Assembly (NCBI GenBank): GCA_023135165.1
Contig: JAGLTS010000005.1
Location: 2,745 to 66,744 of the forward strand
Direction of reading: 5' to 3'
Length of the DNA: 64,000 bases
Origin: Phycisphaerales bacterium
GTDB taxonomy: Bacteria; Planctomycetota; Phycisphaerae; Phycisphaerales; JAGLTS01
Positions 22,705 through 58,176 of this stretch are shown here, in pieces. How positions within the stretch are numbered: the stretch's first letter is position 1; each line of letters opens with the position of its first letter. The notes under the pieces were generated by a model. It was not told the origin of the DNA. It did not search any database and saw nothing but the letters and a program-made list of their open reading frames with translations. A program made the translations under genes and the position numbers.

Positions 22705-22748
22705 GATGGGTCCTTTGGTTCACTCGCGTGCGGAGCACGTAGCGGAGG

Positions 22749-25367: not shown

Positions 25368-25376
25368 GGTTTCCTA

Positions 25377-31560: not shown

Positions 31561-31644
31561 GGCCGTGTGCCAGAGTGGACTAATGGGGCGGATTGCAAAT
31601 CCGCTGGGCTTTGCCCGTCGTGGGTTCGAATCCCACCGCGGCCT
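31561..31644 (+). tRNA. tRNA-Cys (anticodon GCA) with a long, class-II-like variable arm
   Basis: Manual cloverleaf. Acceptor GGCCGTG/CGCGGCC. D-arm CCA(G)..(A)TGG with GG in the loop. Anticodon stem GCGGA/TCCGC with loop TTGCAAA. 15-nt variable region TGGGCTTTGCCCGTC (GGGC/GCCC stem). T-arm GTGGG-TTCGAAT-CCCAC. Discriminator T. No encoded CCA. Confidence 0.8.
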
Positions 31645-31680
31645 TTCCGATGCTCGATTCGGGGGATAGACCCTGAGCGG

Positions 31681-42126: not shown

Positions 42127-42779
42127 TCCGCGGTTTCGCGACGAATCTTACCTCGCATGAACCAGATCAGGAGGAAGAGCGGATATGGAAGCGTATACGC
42201 AACACCGATCAACACACCGATCCACGGGTTAACCTCCGCGCCTATCTTCATCATCCCTGTACCAGGAAGATCCGGATTCTCAGCGATGTAGACGCGCATG
42301 GCCTCTGCGTTTCTTCCGGCGACTCCATAGGCGACATAGGCTGACACGACGAGGAGCAGGATCTTCAACACAGCCCAGAACATCGAGAAGAACCGCGCGT
42401 TTCGGCTCCGCTTGACAAGCATGATCCCGGAGATCAGCAGCACGAGAGCCCATACGGCATTCGCGCCGCCGACCGCGAAATACGCAGCGTCATACACGCC
42501 GGTGCTGTCCACCATCGGCACATTCTGTGCGTCGGGGTTGTTGGCCAGGAGTTGCGGGACCACGGTGGCCGCCGCTCCGCCTCCGATGTTGCAGCAACCC
42601 CAGTACAGCACGCCGATCGAGCCGAACACGATGCTCAAAACGCCGACCACCTTCGGCCACTTCGACGGCAACTCCGTCATCACCGACGTCGTCGCGGCAG
42701 GCGAGTCAGGCGTCACGGGGGTCATCGGCGGAAGATCAGGAGTCGGAGCTTGATCTGGTTGATCTGGTTGATCGGCCAT
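42120..42779 (-). CDS. hypothetical 4-TM membrane protein (paralogue 2)
   Basis: 219 aa from ATG at 42779 (GAGAGG upstream). N-terminal DQPDQPDQ is encoded by a short 9-bp tandem repeat. C-terminus WFMRGKIRRETAEW. Confidence 0.6.
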   Translation of the reverse strand: MADQPDQPDQAPTPDLPPMTPVTPDSPAATTSVMTELPSKWPKVVGVLSIVFGSIGVLYWGCCNIGGGAAATVVPQLLANNPDAQNVPMVDSTGVYDAAYFAVGGANAVWALVLLISGIMLVKRSRNARFFSMFWAVLKILLLVVSAYVAYGVAGRNAEAMRVYIAENPDLPGTGMMKIGAEVNPWIGVLIGVAYTLPYPLFLLIWFMRGKIRRETAEW

Positions 42780-42830
42780 CGCAATACACCTCTCGCAATA
42801 GGTCATACATCCACGACGCGCGGCCGTGGC

Positions 42831-45048: not shown

Positions 45049-47709
45049 CTACCTCGTACTGCTGCGGTTCGTGATCGCTAGCGCTGCCGACGAATCGCGC
45101 ATCGGCAGCTTGCGCCGAATGACGCCGTCGTACCTGTATAGCGCGCCCGCAATCGCAGGGGCGGTCGGCACCAGACCGATCTCGCCCACACCCCGGGCGC
45201 CGAACGGGCAGTCCGGGTCCGCCGTCTCGATGAAGTGAAGCTCCATCTCAGGCATCTGGTCCGCTCGCAACACACCGCAGTCCTTGATCCCCTTCGCCTG
45301 GATGATCCCGCCGTCCACCGGGAAGTCCTCCGTCAGTGCGTAACCGATCCCCATGTGCAAGGCGCCGTAGATCTGGCCGCGAAGCTGCGTCGGGTTGATG
45401 ACGCGACCGACATCGTGAGCTGCGATCATCTTCACGAGCGTGCCCGCATCGTCGAGAATCGCGACTTGCGTGGCGTAGCCGTAGGTGATGTGCGTCTTCG
45501 GCCCGCCGGGCTTGTTCATGTCCGTCCCGAGCGGGCTTGTGTCATCACAAATCCACTCGCCGTGGAACACCCGGCCGATCAGATCGGCAAGCGTTCGCCC
45601 GGCGTCGAGTTCAGCGCGCAGCGCCCGGCCCGCCGCGGTGACCGCATGACCGGCCAGCACCGTCGCTCGACTCGCCGTCGTCTGCCCACAATCAAGCCGC
45701 TGGGAGGTATCCGTCGAAACGGTGAACGCATCGGCGGACAGCCCCGTCGCCTCGACCGCGAACTGGATGCACACCGTGAACAGCCCCTGCCCCATCTCGG
45801 TGAAGCCCGTCCGGATGTGCACCGTGCGATCATCCTCGACCGTCAGCGCAGCCCGACCGATGTCCGCCATACCGTTGCCGATGCCGACGTTCTTGATCCC
45901 GCATGCGATGCCTGCGTACTTCGCGTTTTTGTACTGGCCCTTGACCGCTTCGAGCGTCCTTCGCAAACCAAATGGCTTGCTCAGCACCTGACCGGTGGCG
46001 AACGCATCGCCCATCTCAAGGATGTTGCGGTCGCGGATATCGTAGCCGTCGATGCCGACCTTCTCCGCAAGGCGGTCGAGGATCCCTTCGATGGCGAATG
46101 CCGCTTGATTCGCGCCGAAGCCTCGCATCGCGCCGCATGGCGGGTTGTTCGTGTACACCGCCAGCGCTTCCATGTCGATGCTCGGCACACGGTACGGCCC
46201 GGTGCAATGGCCGCCCGCTCGCTCGACGACCTTCGCGCCGACGGATGCGTACGCGCCTTTGTCGCCGATGATTCGCACCTTGACGGCTAGGAGCTTGCCA
46301 TCCGCATCACAGCCGACCTTGTATGCCATCTCGATCGGATGTCGCTTCGGATGGATGCAGAAGCTCTCGGCGCGCGTGAGCGTGATCTTGACGGGTCTGC
46401 CCAAGAGATGCGCCATGAGTGCGGTCTGGCCTTGGATGGAGAGGTCTTCCTTCCCGCCGAACGCCCCGCCGTTGCTGACCAGTTCGACATGCACGCGCGA
46501 TGTGTCCACGCCGAGGATCGACGCGATCTGTCGTCGGTCGTCGAACACGCCCTGGCCTTGTGTGTAGACGTGCAGCCGATCATCCTGGGGAACCGCGAGA
46601 CATGACTCCGGCTCAAGGAACAAGTGCTCGATGCGCTGCGTGCGGTACGTGTCCTCGATGATGTGAGCGGACGAAACGAACGCCTGTTCGACATCGCCGC
46701 GCTTCAGTACGGATCGGCTGAGCAGGTTCGTTGTGCGCTCGGGATGGACGAGCGGCGCGCCTTCACGGAGCGCCTCGTGTGGGTCGGTGACGGGTGTCAG
46801 CACGTCGTACTCGATGTCGATGAGCGCCGCGGCACGACGAGCGATCTGCACCGTGTCGGCCGCAACCGCTGCGATAACATCACCGGTGCAATGCGTTACC
46901 TCGCCTTGGGCGATAAAGATCGGCCAGTCGCGCTCGATCAACCCGACGTACCGATCACCGGGCACATCGGCGGCGGTGAACACGCGATGAACGCCCGGCA
47001 GCGCCGTCGCCCGGTTCGTATCAACGCGCTTCACCACCGCCCGCGGATGATCGGAAAGCCGAAGCGCGCCAAACAACATGCCCGCCACGCGCATGTCATC
47101 AACGAACGGTCGCACGCCCAGCACCGCCTCCCGCCCCCGATACCTCGGCACGCTCACCCCCACACCCCCACGCTCGGCAACAGCGTCCGTCCCCGTCTCC
47201 CCTCTGAAAACGGTATCCGACACCGTTTTCTGGGACGAGGCGTAGCGCTCGATGCTGTCGATGATCTGCTTGTATCCCGTACAGCGACACAGGTGCGGCC
47301 GAAGCGCCTTCGTGATCTCCGTCCGGCTGGGGCTTGGGGTCTTCTCGACAAGCACCACGGCCCGCATCGCGATCCCCGGTGTGCAGTACCCGCATTGCAC
47401 GCCGCCCGCCTCGACGAAGCTCTCCGCGAGCTGCTCCCGCTGCGCCTCCTCCAACCCTTCCAACGTCGTGATCGACTTGCCCTCTACGCGATGCGGTTTC
47501 ATCGCGCACGACAACACCGGCTTGCCATCAACGAGCACCGTGCAGCACCCACATTGGGCTTGCGGCTGACAGCCGTTCTTGGGTGATGTGATGCCGAGGC
47601 GGTCGCGCAGAATATCCAGCAGCGTCAGGTCGCCATCGTCGATCTCGATCTCGACGGGCGATCCGTTGACGGTGCATGACAGTGTGTACGGGGTCTGGGT
47701 GCGTGTCAT
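45049..47709 (-). CDS. molybdopterin-dependent hydroxylase with fused N-terminal 2x[2Fe-2S] domain (XdhD / aldehyde oxidoreductase-like)
   Basis: 886 aa from ATG at 47709. CQPQAQCGCCTVLVDG, GVQCGYCTPG and LCRCTGY ferredoxin-like motifs, followed by a xanthine-dehydrogenase-family Moco domain (GGAFGGKED, MRGFG). Confidence 0.85.
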   Translation of the reverse strand: MTRTQTPYTLSCTVNGSPVEIEIDDGDLTLLDILRDRLGITSPKNGCQPQAQCGCCTVLVDGKPVLSCAMKPHRVEGKSITTLEGLEEAQREQLAESFVEAGGVQCGYCTPGIAMRAVVLVEKTPSPSRTEITKALRPHLCRCTGYKQIIDSIERYASSQKTVSDTVFRGETGTDAVAERGGVGVSVPRYRGREAVLGVRPFVDDMRVAGMLFGALRLSDHPRAVVKRVDTNRATALPGVHRVFTAADVPGDRYVGLIERDWPIFIAQGEVTHCTGDVIAAVAADTVQIARRAAALIDIEYDVLTPVTDPHEALREGAPLVHPERTTNLLSRSVLKRGDVEQAFVSSAHIIEDTYRTQRIEHLFLEPESCLAVPQDDRLHVYTQGQGVFDDRRQIASILGVDTSRVHVELVSNGGAFGGKEDLSIQGQTALMAHLLGRPVKITLTRAESFCIHPKRHPIEMAYKVGCDADGKLLAVKVRIIGDKGAYASVGAKVVERAGGHCTGPYRVPSIDMEALAVYTNNPPCGAMRGFGANQAAFAIEGILDRLAEKVGIDGYDIRDRNILEMGDAFATGQVLSKPFGLRRTLEAVKGQYKNAKYAGIACGIKNVGIGNGMADIGRAALTVEDDRTVHIRTGFTEMGQGLFTVCIQFAVEATGLSADAFTVSTDTSQRLDCGQTTASRATVLAGHAVTAAGRALRAELDAGRTLADLIGRVFHGEWICDDTSPLGTDMNKPGGPKTHITYGYATQVAILDDAGTLVKMIAAHDVGRVINPTQLRGQIYGALHMGIGYALTEDFPVDGGIIQAKGIKDCGVLRADQMPEMELHFIETADPDCPFGARGVGEIGLVPTAPAIAGALYRYDGVIRRKLPMRDSSAALAITNRSSTR

Positions 47710-47791
47710 CACCGGTAGTGTCGCCCCGCCGCCCCGCCGCGACAAGCCCGCCGTTTCGCCGACGCGCTCGCCGTGGTACAACAGCCCCCCC

Positions 47792-49132
47792 ATGACGACA
47801 CGCACGAAACAGCGCCAGCCGGCAAATCCGTACTTGCAGCGAGCCCGGACCTACGAGAAGGCGATGGTCCGGTTCCTGCGTGACCTGATCGCTATTCCCT
47901 CGGAATCAGCGGAGGAAGGCGAGGTCATCGCGCGGATTCGCCGGGAGATGGAGGCGACCGGTGCGTTTGACCGCATCTGGACCGACAAGATGGGCAACCT
48001 CCTCGGCATGGTCGGTCGGCCGGGCAAGGGCAAAATGCTCCTCGCCATCGACGCCCACGTCGACACCGTCGGCATCGGCGACCGGGCGGAGTGGAAGCAC
48101 GATCCCTACCGGGGCAAGGTCGAGGCGGGCAAGGTCTGGGGCAGAGGCGCGGGCGACCAGGAGGGGGCGATCCCGGCGATGGTCTACGCAGCCAAGATCA
48201 TGCGCGATCTGGATCTCGACCTCTCCGAGTACTGCGTGCTGATGACCTTCACCGTCATGGAGGAGGACTGCGACGGCCTGTGCTGGCAGTACATCATCAA
48301 CGAGGATGGCATTCGCCCCGATGCGGTCGTCATTACCGACTCGACGAACTGCTGCATCCTGCGCGGACATCGCGGACGCATGGAGATCGGCGTCACGTGC
48401 ACCGGCCGATCCTGCCACGGCTCGATGCCGGACAAGGGCGTCAACGCGGTGTACAAGATCGCCAAGATCGTCAATGAGATTGAAAAGCTGAACACTCGAC
48501 TGCGAAGCGATCCGTTCCTCGGCAAGGGCACGATCACGGTCAGCTTCATCGACTGCAAGACGCCCAGCCTGTGTGCCGTGCCGGGGCAGGCGTTCATTCA
48601 CCTGGATCGCAGGCTCACGCTCGGTGAGACGAAGGCGTCGGCTGTGGCGGAGGTGAAGGATGCGGTGAAACGAGCAGGCGTGAAGGCGAAGGTGCAGGTG
48701 CTCCGCTACGCCCGCCCGAGTTACACGGGGCTGACCTACGAGACGGAGAAGTACTTCCCGACATGGTGCGAGCCGGAGGATGCGCTGCAAGTCCGTGCTG
48801 CGATCAAGGCGCATCGGGAAGCGCTCGGCCGACAGCCGACCGTGCATCGCTGGACGTTCAGCACCAACGCCGTCGCCATCGCGGGCATGCACGGCATCCC
48901 ATGCGTCGGGTTCGGCCCGGCGCCGGAGAACGTCGCGCACACGGTGAACGACTCGGTTCCGATCAAGCACATGGTGAACTGCGCCGCGTTCTACGCACGA
49001 TTCGGCCAGGCGTACTGCGATCTCGCCGCCGGCCGAGAGCACCGCACGCCGATGAGCTTCAAGCGAAAGCACCCCACTGTTGAGCCTCGCCCCAAAGGGA
49101 AGCGCGATGCGCGAAAGAAGGATGGCCCATGA
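47792..49132 (+). CDS. ygeY: YgeY-type M20 family peptidase/hydrolase
   Basis: 446 aa from ATG at 47792. LRDLIAIPSESAEE, IDAHVDTVG, WGRGAGDQEGA and MEEDCDGLCW resemble the YgeY subfamily as I recall it. Confidence 0.8.
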   Translation: MTTRTKQRQPANPYLQRARTYEKAMVRFLRDLIAIPSESAEEGEVIARIRREMEATGAFDRIWTDKMGNLLGMVGRPGKGKMLLAIDAHVDTVGIGDRAEWKHDPYRGKVEAGKVWGRGAGDQEGAIPAMVYAAKIMRDLDLDLSEYCVLMTFTVMEEDCDGLCWQYIINEDGIRPDAVVITDSTNCCILRGHRGRMEIGVTCTGRSCHGSMPDKGVNAVYKIAKIVNEIEKLNTRLRSDPFLGKGTITVSFIDCKTPSLCAVPGQAFIHLDRRLTLGETKASAVAEVKDAVKRAGVKAKVQVLRYARPSYTGLTYETEKYFPTWCEPEDALQVRAAIKAHREALGRQPTVHRWTFSTNAVAIAGMHGIPCVGFGPAPENVAHTVNDSVPIKHMVNCAAFYARFGQAYCDLAAGREHRTPMSFKRKHPTVEPRPKGKRDARKKDGP

Positions 49133-50163
49133 CAAGCCTCAAAGGCAGGGACTACATCGAAACACAGGATCTCGCGCTCAACGAGCTGAGTCTGCTGCTT
49201 GACACGACTGCCGAGCTGAAGGAGAAGTTCCACCGCGGGGAACCGACGCTGCTGCTTCCTCATCAGACGGCGTACCTGCTGTTCTTCGACAAATCCACGC
49301 GCACGCGCAACGCATTCGAAGCGGGGATGACACAACTTGGCGGGCACGCGCACTTCCTGGATGTCGCACTCACGCAAATCAGCCACGGCGAAACCGCCGC
49401 CGACACGGGGCGCATCCTCGGCGCGATGGGGCACGGCATCTGTGTCCGCCACGACTTGGTCCTCGGCGAAGGCAATCGTTACATGCGCGAGATGGCGGAG
49501 GCGACCGATGTCCCCATCATCAACATGCAATGCGATGTGGACCACCCGACGCAGACGCTCGCGGACATCTTCACGATGCGGGAGCGTTTCGGGAAGGATG
49601 TGAGCGGCCTGAAGATCGCCGTGACGTGGGCCTATGCACCGTCCTACGCCAAGCCGCTCAGCGTGCCGCAGGGGCTGATCACACTGATGACGCGCTTCGG
49701 CATGCACGTGACGCTCGCCCATCCGCCAGGCTACGATCTCATCGGCCGAACGCTTGACGATGCGAAGAACAACGCGCGTGCAACGGGCGGGTCGTTCGAG
49801 ATCGTTGACGACATGGATGCTGCGTTCGCAGGCGCGGACATCGTCTATCCCAAGAGTTGGGGCGTGCATGAACTGATGCTCGAAAGGCAGCTTGCGACGA
49901 CCCAGGCTGCGATCGACGAGAACCAGCGGGCCTGTCTTGCCATGAACGATAAGCACAAAGGCTGGATCTGCGATGAGCGCCGCATGGCCCTGGCGAAGAA
50001 GGAGGCGGTCTACATGCACTGCCTCCCCGCTGACCGGGGCTATGAGGTCACGGATGCGGTCATCGACGGCCCGCAGTCGATCGTCTTCCAGGAGGCGGAG
50101 AACAGGCTCCACACCGCCAAGGCGATCATGGCCTGCACCATGCGCGAGCGACCGTTTGTGTAA
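49129..50163 (+). CDS. ygeW: YgeW-type knotted carbamoyltransferase
   Basis: 344 aa. STRTR, DHPTQTLAD, and the long block IAVTWAYAPSYAKPLSVPQGLITLMTRFGMHVTLAHPPGYDL closely follow E. coli YgeW as I recall it. 4-nt overlap with ygeY. Confidence 0.85.
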   Translation: MTSLKGRDYIETQDLALNELSLLLDTTAELKEKFHRGEPTLLLPHQTAYLLFFDKSTRTRNAFEAGMTQLGGHAHFLDVALTQISHGETAADTGRILGAMGHGICVRHDLVLGEGNRYMREMAEATDVPIINMQCDVDHPTQTLADIFTMRERFGKDVSGLKIAVTWAYAPSYAKPLSVPQGLITLMTRFGMHVTLAHPPGYDLIGRTLDDAKNNARATGGSFEIVDDMDAAFAGADIVYPKSWGVHELMLERQLATTQAAIDENQRACLAMNDKHKGWICDERRMALAKKEAVYMHCLPADRGYEVTDAVIDGPQSIVFQEAENRLHTAKAIMACTMRERPFV

Positions 50164-50256
50164 CTACCGCAGCGCACATCGTTGATCCGCACGCTGGAAT
50201 AGCCGATACAAGCACGTTTCCCCCCATCGTGGGTGTTACATTGAGGTGATTCACTC

Positions 50257-51219
50257 ATGAGTGATACGGACAAGACCATGGTTGTCGCGCTCGGCGGCAA
50301 TGCGATCAGCGACCCGAGCGAGGAAGGCAACATCAACCAGCAGTTCGAGCGCAGTCGGCACACCGCGCGCGTGCTCTGCGATGCGGTCCAGCGCGGATAC
50401 CGCCTCATCATCACGCATGGGAACGGCCCGCAGGTCGGCAACGTGCTCCGCCGCGCGGAGATCGCATCCGGCGAGTTGTATATGATCCCGCTTGAGATCT
50501 GCGTCGCCGACACGCAGGCGGGCATGGGCTATATGATCGGCCAGTGCATCACCAATGAACTCATGGCGCGCGGCATCGAGAAGCAGATCACGACCGTCGT
50601 CACATCCGTGCTCGTTGACCGCGACGATCCCGCGTTCGCCAATCCGACCAAGCCGATCGGTTCGCGCGTGAGCGAGGCGCAGGCGGAGCAGCATCGCGCT
50701 GAGGATGGCTGGACGATGGTGCAGGTTGATGATGATCTGTATCGGCGCGTCGTCGCATCACCTCCGCCGGTGGAGATCCTGGAACTGCCGGTCATACGCA
50801 GGCTCATCGACGCGGGCGATCTGGTCATCGCCTGCGGCGGCGGCGGGATACCCGTCATCCTCAACGACGAGCGTCATTATCGAGGTGCCGCAGCGGTCAT
50901 CGACAAGGATCGCACATCCGCACTGCTCGCCAGGGAACTCGACGCGGATATCCTTGTGATTCTCACATCGGTTGATCGTGTGTATATCAACTTCGGCAAG
51001 CCCGATGAGCGAGGACTCGACTGCCTCACGGTCGGCGAGGCAAAGGACCTTCTGGATGCCGGTCAGTTCCCGGAAGGCTCGATGGGGCCGAAGATCCAAT
51101 CTGCGATCGACTTCGTGACACAGTCGAGCAAGGCGGATGCCGCGGTCATCATCGCGCAGCTCGACAAACTCACCGAGGCGCTCGATGGAACCAGCGGTAC
51201 GCGCATCACGCGCGGGTAG
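50257..51219 (+). CDS. arcC: carbamate kinase
   Basis: 320 aa. VVALGGNAI, ITHGNGPQVG, ACGGGGIPV and AVIDKD. Confidence 0.9.
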   Translation: MSDTDKTMVVALGGNAISDPSEEGNINQQFERSRHTARVLCDAVQRGYRLIITHGNGPQVGNVLRRAEIASGELYMIPLEICVADTQAGMGYMIGQCITNELMARGIEKQITTVVTSVLVDRDDPAFANPTKPIGSRVSEAQAEQHRAEDGWTMVQVDDDLYRRVVASPPPVEILELPVIRRLIDAGDLVIACGGGGIPVILNDERHYRGAAAVIDKDRTSALLARELDADILVILTSVDRVYINFGKPDERGLDCLTVGEAKDLLDAGQFPEGSMGPKIQSAIDFVTQSSKADAAVIIAQLDKLTEALDGTSGTRITRG

Positions 51220-51266
51220 CCTGGCGCGCACAACCGTGCTGCGAAGTCGAAGGCGGATTGCTGCGT

Positions 51267-51956
51267 TCATCGCTCCCAGCCGCATTCCGCGCACCCTTGT
51301 TCGCGACTTCCACGCAGGTCATAGCCACAATTGGGGCAGCAGCCGCGGCGTCGGCGAGATCTGCGTCGGAGCATGTGCCAAGTCGCGTGCAGAGCACACA
51401 CGATTGACCCGTAGAAGAGCGCATTGACGGCCGTCCCCACCAGCATCGGCCGAAGCGGAATGCAGCTCACAGCGCTGCCGCGAACGGAGGATGGAGCCCA
51501 CAGCCAGGACGGACGCGGAATCGCGTCCTCGTAAATCAAGCGCTGCTTGTAGCTACGAACTGCGCCGGCAAGAGAGCGCGCCGGCCAACCAACCTCCGTG
51601 ATGCTCACGACGTCGACCGCGGCACGGACGGACTCGTCGTAGGTGGCATCGGCTTCGGTAAAGCTAAAGCTGGCAATCGCGCTCACGCGGATCTGAGTGC
51701 GGAGCGTCGTTCGCCATACGAAGGCTGCGTAGCACCCGACCTCATCGTCAAAGAGCGGCTTGCGATCTCCCCATATCTCGGCAGCCCTGGAGTTGAGTCC
51801 CCAAGGCAAGGCGGTCATCTCGTCTGACGGTGGTGCCCAGAGCGAGCAGGCGGTCGCGACCATCACGTTGATCGCGAGACCACAGACCAGGTAGATCAAG
51901 CCGCAGAGCACCACTCGTCTGATGGATGAAGCTGTGAAACGCATCGAACGGTTCAT
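51267..51956 (-). CDS. hypothetical membrane protein with C-terminal CxxC...CxxC zinc-ribbon
   Basis: N- and C-terminal TM helices, then RRRSRRRRGCCPNCGYDLRGSREQGCAECGW. Candidate starts are ATG 51956/51944, or GTG 51992 overlapping the ssnA stop. Confidence 0.55.
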   Translation of the reverse strand: MNRSMRFTASSIRRVVLCGLIYLVCGLAINVMVATACSLWAPPSDEMTALPWGLNSRAAEIWGDRKPLFDDEVGCYAAFVWRTTLRTQIRVSAIASFSFTEADATYDESVRAAVDVVSITEVGWPARSLAGAVRSYKQRLIYEDAIPRPSWLWAPSSVRGSAVSCIPLRPMLVGTAVNALFYGSIVCALHATWHMLRRRSRRRRGCCPNCGYDLRGSREQGCAECGWER

Positions 51957-51988
51957 CCCAAGATCACCGGCAAGCGTTGCAACCCTCT

Positions 51989-53329
51989 TCACTCACACGC
52001 GATCGTCGCCATGCGGTCGTAGAGCAATTGCGCCTGTCGCTGCGCATCACGGAGCGTCTCGGCCTCATCACATGACACAGCCTTGCCGTCGCGCAGCCGC
52101 CAGTGACCGTCGATCATCACATCCCGCACATGCTGAGCGCCCATTGCGAAGATGACGTGGCCGGCGAGGTTCGTCTCGTCCATCGGCGTCGCGGGACGGT
52201 ACGAGGTGAGGACCAGATCCGCTGCTGCACCGACATCCAATACGCCCAGCGTCACACCCAGGCGCGTTGACGCCGCCCGCGCAGCGCGGCTGAGCAATCG
52301 CAGGCACACATCAGGCGTGATGCCAAGATGTGCATCCCGACTCTTGAAAAACGCTGTCTGCGCTTCGGTCCACATATCACCGTCGATACCATCCGTGCCG
52401 AGCATTACAGGCAGCGTGTACTTGGCAACGGGTGAGTATCCCACGCCGTTCTTCATATTCGAGCGCGGGTTGTGCGCCACGACCAGCGCATCGGCTCGTT
52501 CATTCAGCGAGGCGATGTCACTATCCGGAAAGTACGTGCCGTGCACAATGATCGTGCCGGGCACATCGAGCAGACCGGATCGCTCGAATCGCTCCAGCAA
52601 CCCGCAGTCGACGTTCGCGCGCGTGAGTCGCTCATCGACGGGATCTTCGGCGGCGTGAATGTGCATCGGCGCGCCGAGGCGTTGCGCGAGATCGACGCAT
52701 GCCGCAAGCGACTCCTCACCCAGAGTGAAGCTCGCGTGCGCGCCGACCATCCCCGCGAAGCATCCGTCGCTTCTCGTTTCACATGCGTTGATGTAGCGAT
52801 CGTTCTCCCGCAGGCCGTGCGCTGCCCCATCCAACCCGTTGCGATCAGTGACCTCGTAACACAGCACGCCTCGGCAGCCGACCCGCGCGATCCCTCGCTC
52901 AAGCGCATCGAGGCTCCCGTCGATCGCGTTCGGCGAAGCATGGTGGTCGATCAGCGTCGTCGTCCCGCATCGCAAGGCGCTCAGCGCCCCGATTAACCCG
53001 CTGCACTGGACACTCTCCATCGTGTGCGCGCGGTCCAGTCGCCACCAGACGTAGCGCAGATTCTCATGGAAGTTCGTCGCCGTCCGCGGCGGCGCGGGCA
53101 TCCCGGCGGCGAGCGCCGAGTACAGGTGTGTGTGCCCGTTCACCAAGCCCGGCATGAGCACCGCGCCGTCGCACTGAATGACCTCATCGCCCGGCTCGGC
53201 TGTGATGTCATCACCGATCGCTGTGATGCATCCGTTCTCCTGCCTGAGATCCCCTATCCTCGCACGTGGGGGTTCGAACTGAACGAGCAGCGCGCTGCGA
53301 AATACCGTTCCCATACCTTTGCTCCACAC
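51989..53329 (-). CDS. ssnA: SsnA-type amidohydrolase (chlorohydrolase/deaminase family)
   Basis: 446 aa. Metal-binding GLVNGHTHLYS, then TTLIDHHASP ... MHIHAAED. Confidence 0.8.
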   Translation of the reverse strand: MWSKGMGTVFRSALLVQFEPPRARIGDLRQENGCITAIGDDITAEPGDEVIQCDGAVLMPGLVNGHTHLYSALAAGMPAPPRTATNFHENLRYVWWRLDRAHTMESVQCSGLIGALSALRCGTTTLIDHHASPNAIDGSLDALERGIARVGCRGVLCYEVTDRNGLDGAAHGLRENDRYINACETRSDGCFAGMVGAHASFTLGEESLAACVDLAQRLGAPMHIHAAEDPVDERLTRANVDCGLLERFERSGLLDVPGTIIVHGTYFPDSDIASLNERADALVVAHNPRSNMKNGVGYSPVAKYTLPVMLGTDGIDGDMWTEAQTAFFKSRDAHLGITPDVCLRLLSRAARAASTRLGVTLGVLDVGAAADLVLTSYRPATPMDETNLAGHVIFAMGAQHVRDVMIDGHWRLRDGKAVSCDEAETLRDAQRQAQLLYDRMATIACE

Positions 53330-53335
53330 GCCGAA

Positions 53336-54787
53336 TCACAGAAGATCAAGCACACCCGTCTCGCGGTTAAATGATTCGATCAGTCGATCCCATTCTTCAA
53401 CCTGGTTGAATGTACGCACCCAGAAGTCCGGGTCCCAGAGTTCACGCAGCGCCTCGACGGTCTTCCCCTGCTGCTCAATCCACGTAAAATACTTGAAGTT
53501 GTGCAGTGCCTTACGATCGAAGTATGTCAGCTCACGCATGTGATCCATGACGACGCCGTCAATGTACCGAGCTTGATCGGCGATCGCCCGCTCGGTCGTG
53601 TACGGCCCTCGCTCGTCACTGAGGTCGCGCAGTCTGCTTTCATAGAGATCCGCGGAATCGGTCAGGCACGTGAAGATCACATCCCGGCTGCCGAACTCGT
53701 GATACTGCGCCGTCTTGATCGCCGTGATGAGGTTGCAGATGCTCGAAATCCCGAGCAGCGGCAACTGCGCGACAAAATCGCCGGTCAGCGTACGCATCAG
53801 GTATTCGTGCCCAACAGGTTCGTTGAACAAACGCAATAGCGACATGCACTGTTCATCGTCGATCGCGCACACCATGTCCGTGTTGCGCACATTGTGTATC
53901 CACGGCACATGCTTGTCGCCGATGCCTTCGATGCGATGGCCGCCGAAGCCGAACTGGTACAGTGTCGGGCATTGCAGCGCCTCGGAAACAACGACTCTCA
54001 TCAGCGGGTGTTTCGTTCTCAGGAAGTCCCCCGCCGCCACCGTTCCCGCGCTGCCCGTGGCGGAGACGTATGCCGCGAGTTGATGCCCTTCGCCGAGGCG
54101 CTCGAAGATCTCCTGGATTATCGAGCCTGTCATGTGGTAATGCCACACCGCGTTCCCGAACTCATCAAACTGATTGAAAATCACGCAATCGGGACGTGTC
54201 TTACGGATCTCCCAGCACTTGTCGTAGACCTCCTTGACGTTCGACTCGCAGCCGGGCGTGGCGATGACCTCCGCGCCGATGCTCTCCAACCAGTCGAACC
54301 GTTCCCGGCTCATCTCCTCGGGCAAGATCGCAACGGCTGTGCAATCAAGCAGCGCCGAATCAAACGCACCGCCCCGACAGTAGTTACCTGTGCTCGGCCA
54401 GACCGCCTTGTTGACCGTTGGATCGAACTGACCTGTCACGAGGCGCGGCACGAGGCAGCCGAACGCGGCGCCGACCTTGTGCGAACCGGTGGGAAAGTAT
54501 TTGCCGACGAGTCCAATGATCCTGGCCTCCACACCGGTGAGTTCCGGCGGGAATTCGATCCACGTCCCGTCGCCGAACAGCCCGCCGTGCTCGACCGGCT
54601 CGTTTTTCCATGTGATTCGGAAGAGGTCGATGGGGTCGATCTCCCACAGGCCGACCTCTTTCAAGCGGCTCTTGACCTTCTCCGGCACGAGGTGCGGATC
54701 GCGCTGCTGGGCGAACGTCGGAATCAGGATGCGCCGCTCCCTGCAGCGCTGAATCGTGCGAGCCAAGACCTCTTCGTTTATCTGCAC
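53336..54787 (-). CDS. fold-type II PLP-dependent enzyme (cysteine synthase/TrpB-like superfamily), function unknown
   Basis: 483 aa from GTG at 54787 (GGAG 8 nt upstream; the track start at 54838 overlaps the upstream gene). PLP-lysine motif FPTGSHKVGAAF, and SATGSAGT. Confidence 0.7.
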   Translation of the reverse strand: MQINEEVLARTIQRCRERRILIPTFAQQRDPHLVPEKVKSRLKEVGLWEIDPIDLFRITWKNEPVEHGGLFGDGTWIEFPPELTGVEARIIGLVGKYFPTGSHKVGAAFGCLVPRLVTGQFDPTVNKAVWPSTGNYCRGGAFDSALLDCTAVAILPEEMSRERFDWLESIGAEVIATPGCESNVKEVYDKCWEIRKTRPDCVIFNQFDEFGNAVWHYHMTGSIIQEIFERLGEGHQLAAYVSATGSAGTVAAGDFLRTKHPLMRVVVSEALQCPTLYQFGFGGHRIEGIGDKHVPWIHNVRNTDMVCAIDDEQCMSLLRLFNEPVGHEYLMRTLTGDFVAQLPLLGISSICNLITAIKTAQYHEFGSRDVIFTCLTDSADLYESRLRDLSDERGPYTTERAIADQARYIDGVVMDHMRELTYFDRKALHNFKYFTWIEQQGKTVEALRELWDPDFWVRTFNQVEEWDRLIESFNRETGVLDLL

Positions 54788-54791
54788 AGCT

Positions 54792-56039
54792 TCACTCCGT
54801 TCTCGCCCCCGACCGGTCAATCGCGTCGGTGAGCGCATCCATAGTCGGCTCGATGCGGATCGGTTCGCCCCCTGCCGCGATCGCCGAGCGCGTGTCCTTC
54901 AGGCCGCTCCCCGTGATGAGCGCCAAGACACGATCCGTTGCTTGGATCGTTCCGCCGTTCACCGCGTGAGCCATCCCGGCGACCGCCGCCGCCGCTGCGG
55001 GTTCCGCGAACACGCCGTGCCGACCCGCGGTGCGCATTGCTTCGAGAATCTGATCATCCGTGACGCCCACGATGGCGCCGTTTGATTCCTTGAGTGCCCG
55101 GACCGCCTTGCGCCAGTTGCGCGGCGCCTGCACGTTGATACTGTCAGCCACGGTCGTCCGATCGTTCGCGGCAGGCAGCTCGCCGTGCTCCAGCGCATGG
55201 GCGATCGGCGCGACGGCTGTCCCCTGCACGCCGAGCAGTCTCGGCAGCCGACCGATCACGCCGATGTTGTGCATCTCCACAAGCCCCTTCCAGATCCCGG
55301 CGATCGTGCAGCCATCCCCCATGCTCACGACAACCCAGTCCGGCACGCCGCCGAACGCAAGGCACTGCTCCGCGATCTCCAACCCACCCGTCTTCTTCCC
55401 TTCGACGAGCACGGGGTTGATCGCACAGTTGCGGTTGTACCAGCCGAACCGCTCACATGCTGATGAACACAGACGGTACGCCTCGTCGTATGACCCCTTT
55501 ACAGCAAGCACCGTCGCGCCGTACACGAGCAGTTGCGCAAGCTTCGGCTCCGGCGCCGTCTCCGGCACGAAGATCACCGCGCGCAGCCCCGCCAGCGCTG
55601 CAAACCCAGCCAAGCTCGTCGCTGCGTTTCCCGTCGATGCGCAGGCGACGGTCGTCGCGCCGCGTTGCAGCGCATCGGCCACGCCCACCGAACTGGCACG
55701 GTCCTTGAACGAGGCTGTCAGCCCCCGGCTTTCATCCTTGAGCAAGAGTTGCTCAATGCCCAACTCACCGGCCAGTCGCTTGGCATTGATGATCGGCGTC
55801 CACCCGACCTGCCAATGATGGGGAATCGCACCCTCATCCAGCGGCAAAAGCTCGTGATAACGCCAATGCGAGTGCGCCCGACCCTCCAGTGGATCATCGC
55901 GCCATGCTCGGTGGACGGCATCCAGGTCGTAGAGAATGTCCAGAATCCCGTCGTCAGGCCCGCAATCGGGGCACGCCATCGTCACTTCGCCCGGCTCGAA
56001 CGATCGGCCGCACGACACGCACGCCAAATTGACGATCAT
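54792..56039 (-). CDS. threonine-synthase-like PLP enzyme with N-terminal Cys4 ribbon
   Basis: 415 aa from ATG at 56039. CVSCGRSF ... CPDCG ribbon. PLP motif TASFKDRAS. ASTGNAA and ITGSGLKD. Confidence 0.75.
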   Translation of the reverse strand: MIVNLACVSCGRSFEPGEVTMACPDCGPDDGILDILYDLDAVHRAWRDDPLEGRAHSHWRYHELLPLDEGAIPHHWQVGWTPIINAKRLAGELGIEQLLLKDESRGLTASFKDRASSVGVADALQRGATTVACASTGNAATSLAGFAALAGLRAVIFVPETAPEPKLAQLLVYGATVLAVKGSYDEAYRLCSSACERFGWYNRNCAINPVLVEGKKTGGLEIAEQCLAFGGVPDWVVVSMGDGCTIAGIWKGLVEMHNIGVIGRLPRLLGVQGTAVAPIAHALEHGELPAANDRTTVADSINVQAPRNWRKAVRALKESNGAIVGVTDDQILEAMRTAGRHGVFAEPAAAAAVAGMAHAVNGGTIQATDRVLALITGSGLKDTRSAIAAGGEPIRIEPTMDALTDAIDRSGARTE

Positions 56040-56178
56040 GGATGACACGAATACACCTCGGGTCGCCACTGTATCGCACGCGGACCGCTGGGACTACCGT
56101 TGCGCCTGTCCGACACGTCGTCGTTGTCCCCAGCCCCCATCGGCACTACGCTCACGGAACCGCGAACGGACCATACCC

Positions 56179-58176
56179 ATGACCGACCTCGTCTGCGCGC
56201 CATTCCTCGACCTGATCGACCGGATGCGCCTGGAACACAGGACGCAGCGGTCCATCTTCGACTTGCCCCGGCGGAAGTGGTACGCGCCGGCGTGTGATGC
56301 GGATGATCCGGATCTGTCGGTGACTTCTCATGGCAAACGCGCGGGTACGCCGGTCGGGCCTGCTGCGGGACCTCACACGCAGATGGCGCAGAACCTCATC
56401 CTCGGCTACCTCGCCGGGGCGCGCATCTTCGAACTCAAGACGGTCCAGATCAACGATCAACTCACGATCCCACGCCCGTGCATCGACGCTGCCAACGTCT
56501 GTTACAACGTCGAGTGGTCGCAAGAGCTGCGCATCGCCGACTCGCTGAGCCAGTATGTGCAAGCCGCGATGCTCATCCACATGCTCCGCGCCGCGCCGCA
56601 GGTGTTCGACAGCCCGTTCGGCGACCTCGACATGGCAGACCCGATCGGCGATGTCGTGTTCGATATGTCCGTTGGCTACGACCTGGCGGGCATTCAATTG
56701 GACGTCATGCGCCGGTTCATGGCGGGCATGGCGGATGCGCGCGATACGATCGACCGCCTGCGCACGCTCATCCCGGACAGGCTCGCTGCGCTGCGCGATC
56801 TGGACTACCCAGCGCATATCAGCACGAGCGTCACGCTCTCAACGTTTCATGGGTGTCCGCCCGACGAAATCGAGCGCATCTGCGAGTTCCTTCTGACCGA
56901 CATGAATGTCGATGTCGTCGTCAAAATGAATCCGCCGATGCTGGGTCAGGACGAGCTTGAGCATCTTCTGCACGACGTGCTGGGCTACGAGCAGATCACG
57001 GTGAATCCCGAAGCGTACGCGACGGGCTTGCGGTTTGACGAAGCGGTCGAGTTATGCAGCCGGGTCACGACGTTGGCGTCTTCACGCGGTAGGAGCTTCG
57101 GCGTGAAGTTCTGTAACACGCTCGAAGTACTCAATCATTGTGATGTGTTTGGTGCTGATTGCCGTGTGATGTATCTGTCCGGCCCACCGTTGCACGTGAT
57201 CGCGCTGGCGCTCGCTGATCGTTTTCGACGCGCGATCGGACATGAGCTACCGATGTCGTTCTCCGCAGGCGTGGATCGGCGCAACTTCTGCGACACAGTG
57301 GCGTGCGGTTTCCTGCCCGTGACGGTCTGCACGGACTTGCTCAAACCCGGCGGCTACGGCAGGTTGCCCGCCTACCTGCACGCGCTGCGCGATGCGATGA
57401 CAGCACTCGGCGCATCCACGCTCGATCAGTACATCCTCGATGCACACGGTCAACGAGAAGCCGCGAACGGCGATCCCACAACCGCGGCTGCGCTGAACCT
57501 GTCGATCATTACCAAAGAGACCCGCAACGACGAACGGTATCACGCCCGGCGCAACAACAAGGCACCGCAGCGCGTCGACTCGCATCTCACCATCTTCGAT
57601 TGCATCACATGCGAGAAGTGCATCCCCGCCTGCCCGAATGATGCGAACTTCATCTACGAAACACCGCGCGTCGATCTGACATACCGCGATGTCGAGGTGC
57701 GCCCCGACGGGTCGATCGCCCAAGTCGGTGACGAAAAGCACTTCCATATCGAGCAGCGGAAGCAGATCGCCAACTTCGCCGACTTCTGCAATGAGTGCGG
57801 CAACTGTGACACGTTCTGCCCCGAGCACGGCGGCCCGTTCATGCAAAAGCCAAACTTCTTTGGCAGCCGAGCATCACTTGATGCAAGCCCGCGCGACGGC
57901 TTCCTCCTCGATACCGCTGACGGTTCACCCACGCTCATTGCCCGCATCGACGGCAACACGTACCAGTTCGACGGCATACGTTACAGCGATGATATCGTCA
58001 CGGTCATCGTGGAGAATGATCGGTTCACGCGCCTATCCCCCGGCGCCACGGCGCCCAGCGCCCCCCACCGCATCGACATGGAACGCTATCACACGATGGC
58101 AACGCTTCTTCGCAGGATCACCGACCCGTCGCGCATCCACCAAGTCAACACCCGCCTTCACGCTGCGCACGTGTAG
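56179..58176 (+). CDS. YgfK-like oxidoreductase lacking the central GltD-like flavin/NAD(P)H module (DPD-like barrel + 2x[4Fe-4S])
   Basis: 665 aa from ATG at 56179; the track start at 55936 overlaps the divergent gene. TPVGPAAGPHTQMAQN, ELKTVQI, MSVGYDL, TLSTFHGCPPDEIE and TDLLKPGGY match my memory of E. coli YgfK. C-terminal CITCEKCIPACP and FCNECGNCDTFCP. Confidence 0.7.
   Translation: MTDLVCAPFLDLIDRMRLEHRTQRSIFDLPRRKWYAPACDADDPDLSVTSHGKRAGTPVGPAAGPHTQMAQNLILGYLAGARIFELKTVQINDQLTIPRPCIDAANVCYNVEWSQELRIADSLSQYVQAAMLIHMLRAAPQVFDSPFGDLDMADPIGDVVFDMSVGYDLAGIQLDVMRRFMAGMADARDTIDRLRTLIPDRLAALRDLDYPAHISTSVTLSTFHGCPPDEIERICEFLLTDMNVDVVVKMNPPMLGQDELEHLLHDVLGYEQITVNPEAYATGLRFDEAVELCSRVTTLASSRGRSFGVKFCNTLEVLNHCDVFGADCRVMYLSGPPLHVIALALADRFRRAIGHELPMSFSAGVDRRNFCDTVACGFLPVTVCTDLLKPGGYGRLPAYLHALRDAMTALGASTLDQYILDAHGQREAANGDPTTAAALNLSIITKETRNDERYHARRNNKAPQRVDSHLTIFDCITCEKCIPACPNDANFIYETPRVDLTYRDVEVRPDGSIAQVGDEKHFHIEQRKQIANFADFCNECGNCDTFCPEHGGPFMQKPNFFGSRASLDASPRDGFLLDTADGSPTLIARIDGNTYQFDGIRYSDDIVTVIVENDRFTRLSPGATAPSAPHRIDMERYHTMATLLRRITDPSRIHQVNTRLHAAHV

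Follow-up and report, generated by a model that had tools for sequence, protein, structure and literature searches.

A probable variant of the reductive urate degradation gene cluster with two additional PLP enzymes in a Phycisphaerales bacterium

The gene cluster at positions 45,049 to 58,176 of a 64-kb stretch of Phycisphaerales DNA (in the following, the window) raises the question of whether a set of genes that resembles the ygeW to xdhD neighbourhood of Escherichia coli, but lacks several of its members, encodes a working pathway for the degradation of urate, and what the two PLP enzymes it contains might contribute to such a pathway. With a G + C content of 61–67% for the greater part of the window, the first 2 kb being at 0.57, the surrounding DNA is GC-rich and of non-enteric origin, as had been supposed from its sequence. 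The cluster consists of nine adjacent and intact ORFs with coding-like GC3 values of 0.71 to 0.84, and the NCBI gene calls for the source contig agree with the following layout.

45049..47793, minus strand: fused 2Fe-2S and molybdopterin hydroxylase, 914 aa, no FAD domain or subunit (TIGR03311, Pfam)
47794..47863, no strand: gap separating the divergently oriented hydroxylase gene and ygeY-ygeW-arcC unit, a presumed promoter region placed by gene coordinates only
47864..49132, plus strand: YgeY-family M20 hydrolase, 422 aa as called (TIGR03526, NF009555)
49129..50163, plus strand: YgeW-like carbamoyltransferase of a short subfamily, 344 aa as compared to 396 aa in E. coli (best match to the YgeW models)
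50257..51219, plus strand: carbamate kinase, 320 aa (TIGR00746, NF009007)
51267..51944, minus strand: ORF of 225 aa (alternatively 241 aa), one hydrophobic segment at the N terminus and a CxxC...CxxC pattern at the C terminus (ORF and gene call)
51989..53314, minus strand: SsnA-like cyclic amidohydrolase, 441 aa (best match to the SsnA models)
53336..54787, minus strand: PALP483, PLP enzyme of 483 aa, its CysK/CBS-type fold-II core flanked by helical extensions at both termini (Pfam PALP, Foldseek)
54792..56039, minus strand: ThrCL, PLP enzyme of 415 aa derived from threonine synthase, zinc ribbon at the N terminus (TIGR00260, PDB matches)
56040..56178, no strand: gap separating the divergently oriented ThrCL-PALP483-ssnA unit and ygfK, likewise a presumed promoter region placed by gene coordinates only
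56179..58176, plus strand: YgfK homologue, 665 aa, with a DPD/DHODH-like TIM barrel and a 2x[4Fe-4S] domain (TIGR03315, BLASTP)

With respect to family membership, as assigned by the curated cutoffs of NCBIfam and by Pfam profiles together with BLASTP and tblastn comparisons against E. coli K-12 proteins, eight of these genes are conserved, namely those for the fused hydroxylase, YgeY, the YgeW-like transferase, carbamate kinase, the SsnA-like amidohydrolase, the YgfK homologue and the two PLP enzymes. For six of the eight the best or only NCBIfam match is the corresponding pathway family, and three (the hydroxylase with TIGR03311, YgeY and carbamate kinase) pass the curated cutoffs. Like the E. 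coli locus, the cluster combines a Fe-S/Moco hydroxylase with homologues of YgeY (51% identity), YgeW (42%, full length), YqeA (44%), SsnA (37%, end to end) and YgfK (36%), which gives a range of 36–51% by BLASTP. The original prediction of a divergent version of the urate-type cluster is supported by these family matches and by synteny, as the same eight genes lie in syntenic arrangement in Bythopirellula goksoeyrii (CP042913) and other Planctomycetota at 59–83% identity. In addition, both PLP families recur within the urate clusters of many phyla, where the gene orders are rearranged, and 80 PALP483-centred genome loci pooled with 80 SsnA-centred metagenome loci display the same closed set of neighbours. 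The synteny in Planctomycetota and the recurrence in many phyla show that the variant content is not peculiar to a single MAG, and environmental bacteria commonly carry this version. The reductive urate pathway as such was elucidated in 2025, and no description of this gene content was found in the literature searched; the locus is best regarded as a variant of this known pathway, distinguished by its gene content.

The best reading of these data, to which a probability of roughly 0.7 may be assigned, is that the locus encodes the reductive uric acid (2,8-dioxopurine) degradation pathway in a variant form that is functional and conserved. The roles of the E. coli proteins have been established biochemically (Li et al.; Liu et al. 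2025; PMC12507026; bioRxiv 10.1101/2025.04.24.650524), and the route encoded here would presumably be alike in proceeding from urate to 2,8-dioxopurine and then via reduction, ring opening and de-ureidation with a gain of ATP to the release of a C3 amino acid. In such a scheme, the FAD-less Fe-S/Moco hydroxylase would take the 6-oxo group off urate to give 2,8-dioxopurine, which the YgfK homologue with its FMN-type TIM barrel would reduce, most likely with ferredoxin as donor. The ring might then be opened by the SsnA-like amidohydrolase, and a hydantoinase/dihydropyrimidinase whose gene lies at another place in the genome would lead to 2,3-diureidopropionate, from which the YgeW-like protein, the ATP-yielding carbamate kinase and YgeY would strip the two ureido groups. 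The resulting 2,3-diaminopropionate, as the C3 unit, could be turned into pyruvate and ammonia by the ThrC-derived enzyme instead of YgeX, and PALP483 might add a β-elimination or β-replacement on an α-amino intermediate, with albizziin and the other diaminopropionate enantiomer as candidate substrates.

What distinguishes the window from the E. coli locus is, first of all, the absence of YgeX, HyuA, YgfM, YqeB, YqeC and MocA, the first three of which had already been noted as missing in the initial inspection and are found neither by tblastn nor by Pfam, nor just outside the cluster. Queries with E. coli HyuA, YgeX, YgfM, XdhB, YqeB, YqeC and MocA returned only weak PALP-fold similarity in the 64-kb window, and Pfam annotation of the other ORFs of the window and of 10 kb past its end revealed none of the seven. 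Neither SelD nor YqeB (TIGR03309) nor YqeC (TIGR03172) was found in the window or the 10 kb beyond, and HyuA, YgeX, YgfM, YqeB/C and SelD are all absent from the 45 kb that precede the cluster and the 17 kb that follow it; for HyuA, SelD, YqeB and YqeC the absence covers about 81 kb of the source contig. Among the 160 related loci, YqeC occurs only in an E. coli-like one (L159). The sigma-54 regulator and the purine transporters of E. coli are absent as well, the cluster containing neither a urate/xanthine transporter nor a regulator, and Rfam families have no match anywhere within it. Since the clostridial version of the pathway is already known to do without YgfM (PMC12507026), the missing YgfM is no novelty. 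HyuA and YgeX, in contrast, are both retained in the clostridial clusters. A candidate for the HyuA step is suggested by related genomes: a dihydropyrimidinase is commonly encoded in Phycisphaerales, in the nearest relative that the metagenome scan turned up (L087) its gene follows immediately after that for the hydroxylase, and HyuA lies beside the cluster in this and 18 other of the pooled genome and metagenome loci.

Such losses might also be taken as signs of decay, the locus being a non-functional remnant in which hyuA and ygeX are lost and ygfK is damaged; indeed, three canonical genes are absent and the YgfK homologue is about 440 residues shorter than that of E. coli. Against this, no ORF is disrupted and GC3 is coding-like throughout, the architecture recurs at 58–83% identity across orders and classes of the Planctomycetota, and what YgfK has lost is exactly one module with both flanking domains retained, so that decay is a highly improbable explanation, the least probable of those considered here.

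The YgfK homologue deserves closer description in this respect. TIGR03315 is its only match (393 bits as compared to a cutoff of 835) and covers profile positions 8–396 of 1012, and the protein aligns to residues 9–464 (36% identity) and 904–979 (32%) of E. coli YgfK, with no counterpart to residues ~465–903. It had been described as truncated, and shortened it is; a C-terminal truncation, however, is not what the alignment indicates, which points to an internal deletion of exactly one GltD-like FAD/NAD(P)H module of about 440 residues. Two CxxCxxCxxxCP motifs are present, and the AF2 model (pLDDT 78) has pig DPD and DHODH as its top Foldseek matches. All of the 120 best YgfK homologues measure 664–721 aa, making the FAD-less form a stable architecture. 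As the NAD(P)H/FAD module is lost, the protein would have to draw its electrons through the two [4Fe-4S] clusters from an external donor, and its predicted role is that of a 2,8-dioxopurine reductase supplied in this way. A similar situation is found in clostridia, where UacX likewise combines a flavin barrel and Fe-S clusters with the lack of an NAD(P)H/FAD module, implying a ferredoxin-type donor, as was proposed by Li et al. for UacX and for the C. difficile XdhD without FAD (PMC12507026). Rnf, PFOR-like and 2-oxoacid:ferredoxin oxidoreductase genes are encoded in the same window. By domain architecture, the fused Fe-S and Moco hydroxylase without FAD subunit is another feature shared with the clostridial version (XdhAC/DOPDH of C. 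sporogenes, XdhD of C. difficile). Unlike there, the reductase here is a module-less YgfK and not the PydA/DHO_dh-family UacX, and YgeW and carbamate kinase are kept whereas in clostridia they are replaced by UacY.

The hydroxylase, with the Pfam domains Fer2, Fer2_2, Ald_Xan_dh_C and MoCoBD_1/2, had been called XdhD-like, a label that has to be given up: it scores 942.6 bits with TIGR03311 (Se_dep_XDH, cutoff 830.45) and only 272 with the XdhD model TIGR03313 (cutoff 1102), shares 27% identity with XdhD and 28% with XdhA of E. coli, and lacks the XdhD insertion with Glu606. Being of TIGR03311 type, it differs from its E. coli counterpart as does the YgfK homologue without the FAD/NAD(P)H module, and its genomic context suggests a DOPDH-like role in the conversion of urate to 2,8-dioxopurine.

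The placement of YgeY in its pathway subfamily held up, and for YgeW, SsnA and YgfK the specific models are the best or only match, if below cutoff; none of the four returns only generic OTCase, M20, amidohydrolase or DPD families. For YgeY the scores are 518 bits with TIGR03526 (cutoff 321.5) and 517 with NF009555 (cutoff 321), and its Bythopirellula orthologue is 80% identical; its start is ambiguous, since with the ATG at 47792 the protein would be 24 aa longer and the extra residues, too, are alignable with E. coli YgeY. By family it would hydrolyse the ureido groups. Its stop overlaps the ygeW start by 4 nt. The YgeW-like protein reaches 289 and 262 bits with the YgeW models, below the cutoffs of 453 and 500, as compared to 234 bits for OTCase, and its orthologues in clusters of Planctomycetota and Woeseia are 62–83% identical. 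Carbamate kinase, which would gain ATP from carbamoyl phosphate, scores 358.4 with TIGR00746 (cutoff 358.25) and 347 with NF009007 (cutoff 266). The SsnA-like protein, predicted to open the ring of the reduced 2,8-dioxopurine, scores 391.5 with NF005540 (cutoff 444) and 367.5 with TIGR03314 (cutoff 455.5), the next family following at 158, and its HxH metal motif is invariant in the alignment. Scoring under the curated cutoffs, the YgeW, SsnA and YgfK homologues count as divergent members of their subfamilies and not as certified equivalogs, in which they depart from the E. coli proteins, and shifts in substrate are possible.

The same enzyme logic might act on a different N-heterocycle, such as another oxopurine, 8-oxoguanine-derived bases or a pteridine- or pyrimidine-like compound, the PLP pair being present because the final fragment is not 2,3-diaminopropionate. 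In line with this are the scores of these three proteins below the equivalog cutoffs, the low similarity of the hydroxylase to XdhD including the absence of the Glu606 insertion, the lack of HyuA and YgeX in the window, and the four-carbon substrates on which ThrC-type chemistry normally operates. However, the PLP pair is also found in company that passes the cutoffs, as in a Bacteroidota locus where the two genes lie among YgfK, a TIGR03311 XDH, YgeW, YgeY and a D-hydantoinase, all above the curated thresholds. Next to the cluster, Bythopirellula and Bacteroidales encode classical XdhAB-type xanthine dehydrogenases, which would produce urate, and no additional recurrent enzyme family points to another chemistry. 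A different heterocycle is accordingly judged unlikely as compared to urate itself.

That two PLP enzymes are present had been noticed from the outset and is confirmed by the PALP-fold ORFs PALP483 and ThrCL, both additional with respect to the E. coli pathway, one ThrC-derived and the other of CysK/CBS fold. Taken at face value, they could be a housekeeping threonine synthase and a cysteine synthase paralogue next to an otherwise canonical pathway, with YgeX and HyuA encoded elsewhere. ThrCL does share the fold, the length of the catalytic core and the SFKDR motif of the PLP lysine with threonine synthases, passes the thrC model TIGR00260 (196.2 bits, cutoff 167.1; PLP lysine K61 conserved), and has genuine threonine synthases as its top PDB sequence matches (181–212 bits), aligning end to end with the solved enzymes. 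Unlike these, it is embedded in purine degradation operons, carries an N-terminal zinc ribbon and has its substrate-site residues replaced. The four solved enzymes 1UIM, 2ZSJ, 6CGQ and 2D1F all share T88, S155, R160, Q164 and N188 (numbering of the Thermus thermophilus threonine synthase). All 60 cluster-linked ThrCL homologues, in contrast, keep K61 while T88 is replaced by A, S155 by A, G, N or P and R160 by L, T, M or A; N188 is changed to D in 55 of the 60 (G in five), and Q164 to K in 55 (G in five). The window protein itself has A, A, L and D at positions 88, 155, 160 and 188, which reportedly line the substrate-phosphate site of threonine synthase (Omi et al. 2003; Murakawa et al. 2011). 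Judged from the alignment, the substrate pocket appears to be remodelled, and owing to the four replaced residues ThrCL is not classed as a threonine synthase in spite of passing TIGR00260.

PALP483 has the fold-type-II architecture, the PLP lysine, the S-T-G-N loop and the glycine-rich phosphate loop of the CysK/CysM/CBS core (Pfam PALP, 64.9 bits), and its AF2 model (pLDDT 76.6, pTM 0.83) matches CBS and CysK best in Foldseek, with target TM-scores of 0.75–0.82 at 24–26% identity. By the curated models it is no cysteine synthase, at 95 bits with TIGR01139 (cysK, cutoff 351) and 90 with TIGR01136 (cutoff 344); it further differs from that group in two highly conserved extensions, of ~80 aa at the N terminus and ~150 aa at the C terminus, and in its context of urate catabolism instead of sulfur assimilation. 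K104, the PLP lysine, and the STGN loop are invariant in the alignment. Between members of over 10 phyla the protein is 59–78% identical. About 25 of the 80 PALP483-centred genome loci have no pathway gene inside 10 kb, which would fit a housekeeping enzyme and suggests that PALP483 may have a wider role. The neighbours in these 80 loci are ThrCL (37), XDH (32), YgfK (29), SsnA (27), YgeW (25), YgeY (23), carbamate kinase (14), HyuA (10) and MocA (7), with no others recurring. This adjacency, kept in many phyla in spite of rearranged gene orders, argues against housekeeping functions, as do the tight spacing in the window (4 nt from the ThrCL stop to the PALP483 start, ~20 nt from the PALP483 stop to the ssnA start), the replaced residues of ThrCL, the low cysK score of PALP483 and the mutual exclusion of ThrCL and YgeX, so that a housekeeping pair beside a canonical pathway seems very unlikely.

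The last point concerns the 96 loci in which two or more core genes are present; ThrCL was found in 53 and YgeX in four of them, the two never occurring together in any of these 57 (one-sided Fisher p = 0.037, a value based on only four YgeX loci and on many loci that are truncated). Of 26 metagenome loci, 15 have ThrCL immediately upstream of SsnA. As ThrCL and YgeX never coincide, and both are fold-type-II PLP enzymes of the same pathway neighbourhood, ThrCL is likely to substitute for YgeX, the diaminopropionate ammonia-lyase. It is not YgeX itself, scoring 54.6 with NF006058 (cutoff 276) and being 25% identical over 206 aa. Nor has it converged on Asp120 and Asp189 of E. coli YgeX, presumably the catalytic residues: Asp120 aligns with Thr, and Asp189 lies opposite a gap. 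PALP483 and YgeX are found together in two loci (L058, L126).

Within the reading as a urate pathway, it is tentatively conceivable, if somewhat doubtful, that ThrCL and PALP483 constitute more than a one-for-one substitute of YgeX, namely a terminal branch of anaerobic purine breakdown that has so far escaped recognition. Environmental phyla would then have the pathway mostly in this form, and in Planctomycetota, isolates regarded as aerobes included, it would run on ferredoxin via the FAD-less YgfK. B. goksoeyrii was described as an aerobic isolate, which speaks against the urate reading in so far as the characterised urate pathway runs anaerobically. If such a branch exists, it might take the form of stereo-complementary lyases specific for the D- and L-enantiomers, of a β-elimination directly from albizziin, or of a route that turns the C3 unit into serine or cysteine, and it would extend over Planctomycetota, Bacteroidota, Verrucomicrobiota, Woeseiaceae, Elusimicrobiota and others.

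The ninth ORF, finally, had been regarded as a membrane zinc-ribbon protein appended to the cluster. The ORF is present, whereas its membership is not supported: Pfam and NCBIfam give no family match, and tblastn detects no counterpart in any related locus, which makes it probably an unrelated, lineage-specific insert outside the pathway. Other, unrelated genes fill this position in the related loci, and the GC3 of the ORF (0.71) is the minimum of the cluster.

Between positions 45049 and 58176 of the window, which has a GC content of 61-67% over most of its length, nine open reading frames (ORFs) with coding-like third-position GC are arranged as four divergent units.

Unit 1, leftward: 45049-47793, - strand, hydroxylase with fused 2Fe-2S and molybdenum cofactor (Moco) domains
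Unit 2, rightward: ygeY, a ygeW-like gene and arcC, the ygeY stop and the ygeW-like start overlapping by 4 nt
Unit 3, leftward: 54792-56039, - strand, threonine-synthase-derived (ThrC-like) PLP enzyme of 415 aa
Unit 3, leftward: 53336-54787, - strand, second PLP enzyme of 483 aa (PALP483)
Unit 3, leftward: ssnA-like gene
Unit 3, leftward: 51267-51944, - strand, small membrane zinc-ribbon ORF of 225 aa
Unit 4, rightward: 56179-58176, + strand, ygfK-like gene for a protein of 665 aa

The ThrC-like and PALP483 genes are separated by only 4 nt, and PALP483 and the ssnA-like gene by about 20 nt. The start of ygeY is ambiguous (47792-47864): the public gene call places it at 47864, the alignment to E. 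coli YgeY and TIGR03526 starts about 15 residues upstream of that position, and an alternative ATG at 47792 would put it directly against the divergently transcribed hydroxylase gene, which starts at 47793.

Family placement of the conserved genes by NCBIfam and Pfam models (scores in bits versus curated cutoffs)
Hydroxylase, 914 aa: Fer2, Fer2_2, Ald_Xan_dh_C and MoCoBD_1/2, without a FAD domain; TIGR03311 ("selenium-dependent xanthine dehydrogenase") 942.6 versus 830, passes
Hydroxylase: TIGR03313 (XdhD family) 272 versus 1102, fails
YgeY: TIGR03526 518 versus 321.5, passes
Carbamate kinase: TIGR00746 358.4 versus 358.25, passes
Carbamoyltransferase: best model YgeW 289 versus 453, below cutoff
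Amidohydrolase: best model SsnA 391.5 versus 444, below cutoff; next family 158
YgfK homologue: only match YgfK 393 versus 835, below cutoff

With respect to these models, the subfamily assignments of the original prediction hold above cutoff for YgeY and carbamate kinase, but only as best or sole matches below cutoff for YgeW, SsnA and YgfK. Identities to the E. coli K-12 proteins are 51% for YgeY, 42% for YgeW, 44% for YqeA and 37% for SsnA. The description of the hydroxylase as XdhD-like had to be abandoned, as it fails TIGR03313 and lacks the XdhD insertion carrying Glu606, a residue flagged by Li et al. (PMC12507026); this insertion is likewise absent from all TIGR03311-type homologues compared.

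The pathway itself is already known, as the reductive urate pathway was established by two 2025 studies in gut Enterobacteria and Clostridia (PMC12507026; bioRxiv 10.1101/2025.04.24.650524). According to these studies, urate is reduced to 2,8-dioxopurine by XdhD-YgfM in E. coli or by XdhAC/DOPDH in C. sporogenes, 2,8-dioxopurine is reduced by YgfK (DOPOR) and the ring opened by SsnA, HyuA yields 2,3-diureidopropionate, the ureido groups are removed by YgeW together with carbamate kinase and by YgeY, and YgeX converts 2,3-diaminopropionate to pyruvate and ammonia (PMC12507026; bioRxiv 10.1101/2025.04.24.650524). Described variants comprise XdhD without YgfM in C. difficile, the replacement of YgfK by the FMN-only UacX and of YgeW and carbamate kinase by UacY, and an F420-type reductase in Chloroflexota (PMC12507026). 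Since XdhD without YgfM has thus already been described in C. difficile, the absence of YgfM is not new.

In line with the original prediction, YgeX, HyuA and YgfM are not found in the window, where tblastn searches with E. coli HyuA, YgeX, YgfM, XdhB, YqeB, YqeC and MocA returned only weak PALP-fold similarity. Upstream of the cluster the window contains genes for isocitrate dehydrogenase, an H+-pyrophosphatase, an Rnf complex, PFOR-like and KorAB-type oxidoreductases, MMPL, TadA, TatC, an ECF sigma factor, aconitase, PheS and MDH, and downstream those for a P-type ATPase, GpsA and a hybrid kinase, followed by an aminotransferase, GT9, Maf and LpxK in the 10 kb past the window end. As none of the missing genes is among the other window genes or in these next 10 kb, they do not lie just outside the cluster in a standard arrangement. 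The hydantoinase step would probably be supplied in trans.

The same eight-gene set, i.e. FAD-less YgfK, ThrC-like, PALP483, SsnA, carbamate kinase, YgeW-like, YgeY and the fused hydroxylase, is shared by the isolate Bythopirellula goksoeyrii Pr1d (CP042913), which is described as aerobic, and a Planctomycetota contig of 5.7 Mb, with 59-83% identity to the window proteins. The position of the membrane zinc-ribbon ORF is taken by different genes in both; this ORF, initially regarded as appended to the cluster, has no homologue in any related locus and was therefore rejected as a component of the system.

PALP483 has thousands of close homologues. When one genome per species was scanned with the PALP483 alignment, at least 594 matches with 59-74% identity were confirmed, those listed belonging to Planctomycetota, Verrucomicrobiota, Bacteroidota, Elusimicrobiota, Woeseiaceae, Myxococcota, Chloroflexota, Acidobacteriota, Bacillota and others. 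In 80 loci retrieved out of these matches, all ORFs around PALP483 were clustered without supervision, which revealed the ThrC-like enzyme in 37 of the 80, followed by the hydroxylase (32), SsnA (27), YgeW (25), YgeY (23), YgfK in its full-length (22) and FAD-less (7) forms, carbamate kinase (14), HyuA (10) and MocA (7). A search of the clustered loci for further recurrent neighbours that could stand in for HyuA or give a clue to what PALP483 does turned up none beyond the known set. PALP483 occurs without pathway neighbours in about 25 of the 80 loci, and where the ThrC-like gene is missing its neighbours are unrelated (kinases, transporters, an aminotransferase). In a Bacteroidota locus (L056), the PLP pair resides among YgfK (864 versus 835), a TIGR03311 xanthine dehydrogenase (833 versus 830), YgeW (690 versus 453), YgeY (517 versus 321) and a D-hydantoinase (463 versus 393), all five passing their cutoffs. 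An independent metagenome scan centred on SsnA gave 52 loci with at least two urate-pathway (core) genes, 22 of them containing the ThrC-like enzyme, 15 PALP483 and three YgeX, and in 15 of 26 cases the ThrC-like gene lies directly upstream of ssnA. The two different PLP enzymes originally noted in the cluster are found in urate clusters across many phyla.

In the closest relative found (L087), a dihydropyrimidinase gene (L087:16433-17812; 32% identity to E. coli HyuA) directly follows the hydroxylase gene, and homologues of it are common in Phycisphaerales. When these homologues were used to look for a dihydropyrimidinase of the source MAG itself, the named Phycisphaerales match belonged to another MAG (L167:8001-9395), where it is part of a reductive pyrimidine-degradation cluster together with an aldehyde dehydrogenase, a CN_hydrolase, a cytosine/purine permease and a class-III aminotransferase. 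In B. goksoeyrii (L003:826-5736) and four Bacteroidales loci (L030, L035, L041, L055), the variant cluster, with its fused TIGR03311-type enzyme, is flanked by a classical three-domain xanthine dehydrogenase composed of an Fe-S/FAD and a Moco subunit, in L003 also with XdhC. Together, the classical and the fused hydroxylases fit a xanthine-to-urate step and a subsequent urate-to-dioxopurine step.

Among the 96 pooled loci with at least two core genes, 53 contain the ThrC-like enzyme and four YgeX, and the two never occur together (one-sided Fisher p = 0.037), a statistic that rests on four YgeX loci in a set where many loci are incomplete. Because of this pattern of mutual exclusion, the ThrC-like enzyme is the best candidate for the diaminopropionate ammonia-lyase role of YgeX. 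Its alignments with solved threonine synthases span the full length (181-212 bits), and the PLP lysine is retained. Five residues that are invariant in four solved threonine synthases (T. thermophilus numbering) are replaced in the cluster-linked sequences, T88 by Ala, S155 by Ala, Gly, Asn or Pro and R160 by Leu, Thr, Met or Ala in 60/60 each, and Q164 by Lys and N188 by Asp in 55/60 each. Of these, T88, S155, R160 and N188 presumably hold the substrate phosphate in the T. thermophilus enzyme. Convergence on Asp120 and Asp189 of YgeX was looked for by sequence comparison with YgeX, and none was seen. With scores of 196 in the window and 172.8 for L056:11486-12769, ThrC-like proteins from urate clusters exceed the thrC model cutoff of 167.1, and public genomes probably label them systematically as "threonine synthase".

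PALP483 has a CysK/CBS-type core, the structure model giving target TM-scores of 0.75-0.82 at 24-26% identity, and long conserved N- and C-terminal extensions; its PLP lysine and STGN loop are invariant in the alignment, and it fails the cysK model (95 versus 351). With the ThrC-like enzyme in the YgeX role, PALP483 would be left without a step in the published eight-enzyme scheme. Two of the four YgeX loci, L058 from a SAR324 MAG (CK-YgeW-YgeY-YgeX-PALP483; CK, carbamate kinase) and L126 from a metagenome contig (YgeY-YgeX-PALP483-YgeW-CK-XDH-SsnA), carry PALP483 beside YgeX and without the ThrC-like gene, which speaks against PALP483 being a mere replacement for YgeX. As with the other catalytic steps proposed here, we infer its reaction by analogy: given CysK-type chemistry, PALP483 may perform a beta-elimination or beta-replacement on an alpha-amino intermediate, e.g., albizziin or one diaminopropionate enantiomer.

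The YgfK homologue is shortened, as originally stated, but by an internal module deletion and not by C-terminal truncation: it aligns to residues 9-464 (36%) and 904-979 (32%) of E. coli YgfK, and the GltD/YgfT-like FAD/NAD(P)H module between these segments has no counterpart in the window protein. Both CxxCxxCxxxCP motifs are kept, and its best 120 homologues are all 664-721 aa long. A sequence search of the PDB gave no match. Only fold comparison was informative, the AlphaFold model (pLDDT 78) coming closest to the FMN barrels of dihydropyrimidine dehydrogenase and DHODH. The FAD-less YgfK would be functionally analogous to UacX but differs from it in origin. As both the hydroxylase and the YgfK homologue lack NAD(P)H modules, ferredoxin would be the likely electron donor to both, and the window's Rnf, PFOR and OFOR genes agree with this, though as context only. 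In a Verrucomicrobiia MAG (L025, about 2169-7000), the FAD-less YgfK gene adjoins a divergent 827-aa ORF with a GltD/YgfT-like region, which may represent the NAD(P)H module encoded as a gene of its own.

Existing censuses would miss or mask this variant, because one asks for at least 4/7 canonical proteins with 80% coverage and strict identity thresholds, and the other takes any member of Pfam family PF00291 for YgeX. Literature searches combining Planctomycetes with the purine cluster, and ssnA with threonine synthase, gave no match, and the two pathway papers and supplements searched do not mention Planctomycetota, Bacteroidota or Verrucomicrobiota. In the literature searched, we found no description of a YgeX-less gene content with ThrC-derived and CysK/CBS-fold enzymes, of a FAD-less YgfK, or of an occurrence in Planctomycetota and other environmental phyla. 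The reductive urate pathway is pursued for gout probiotics, and a variant with other components occurs far from animal guts, in Planctomycetota, Bacteroidota, Verrucomicrobiota and sediment Gammaproteobacteria. The locus directs attention to two enzyme families, ThrC-like and PALP483, and offers a YgfK predicted to be naturally NAD(P)H-independent; with B. goksoeyrii Pr1d, a cultured carrier exists. If the variant is confirmed, anaerobic purine mineralisation would have a broader ecological range than known so far, and pathway engineering would gain alternative parts.

Elsewhere in the window, positions 12989-28285 harbour an unusual ferredoxin-centred gene block, in which RnfA/E/G/D/C (12989-17292) and an RnfB-like gene (21853-22704) are split by a 1541-aa ORF (17289-21914) whose only Pfam matches, POR_N and PFOR_II, lie in its first ~430 residues; the Rnf genes are followed by an 872-aa ORF matched only by Fer4_13 and by a KorAB-type 2-oxoacid:ferredoxin oxidoreductase. 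Positions 1-2000 have a GC content of 0.57 versus 0.61-0.67 in the rest of the window and contain no ORF with coding-like GC3. At 41542-42806, two overlapping tandem ORFs of 194 and 228 aa code for similar multi-pass membrane proteins without a Pfam match. A search for riboswitches and other RNA elements with Rfam had as its sole match a tRNA gene distant from the cluster (31561-31644), and as this gene lies within the long ORF of an MMPL-family protein (31390-33936), the start of the latter must be downstream of the tRNA.
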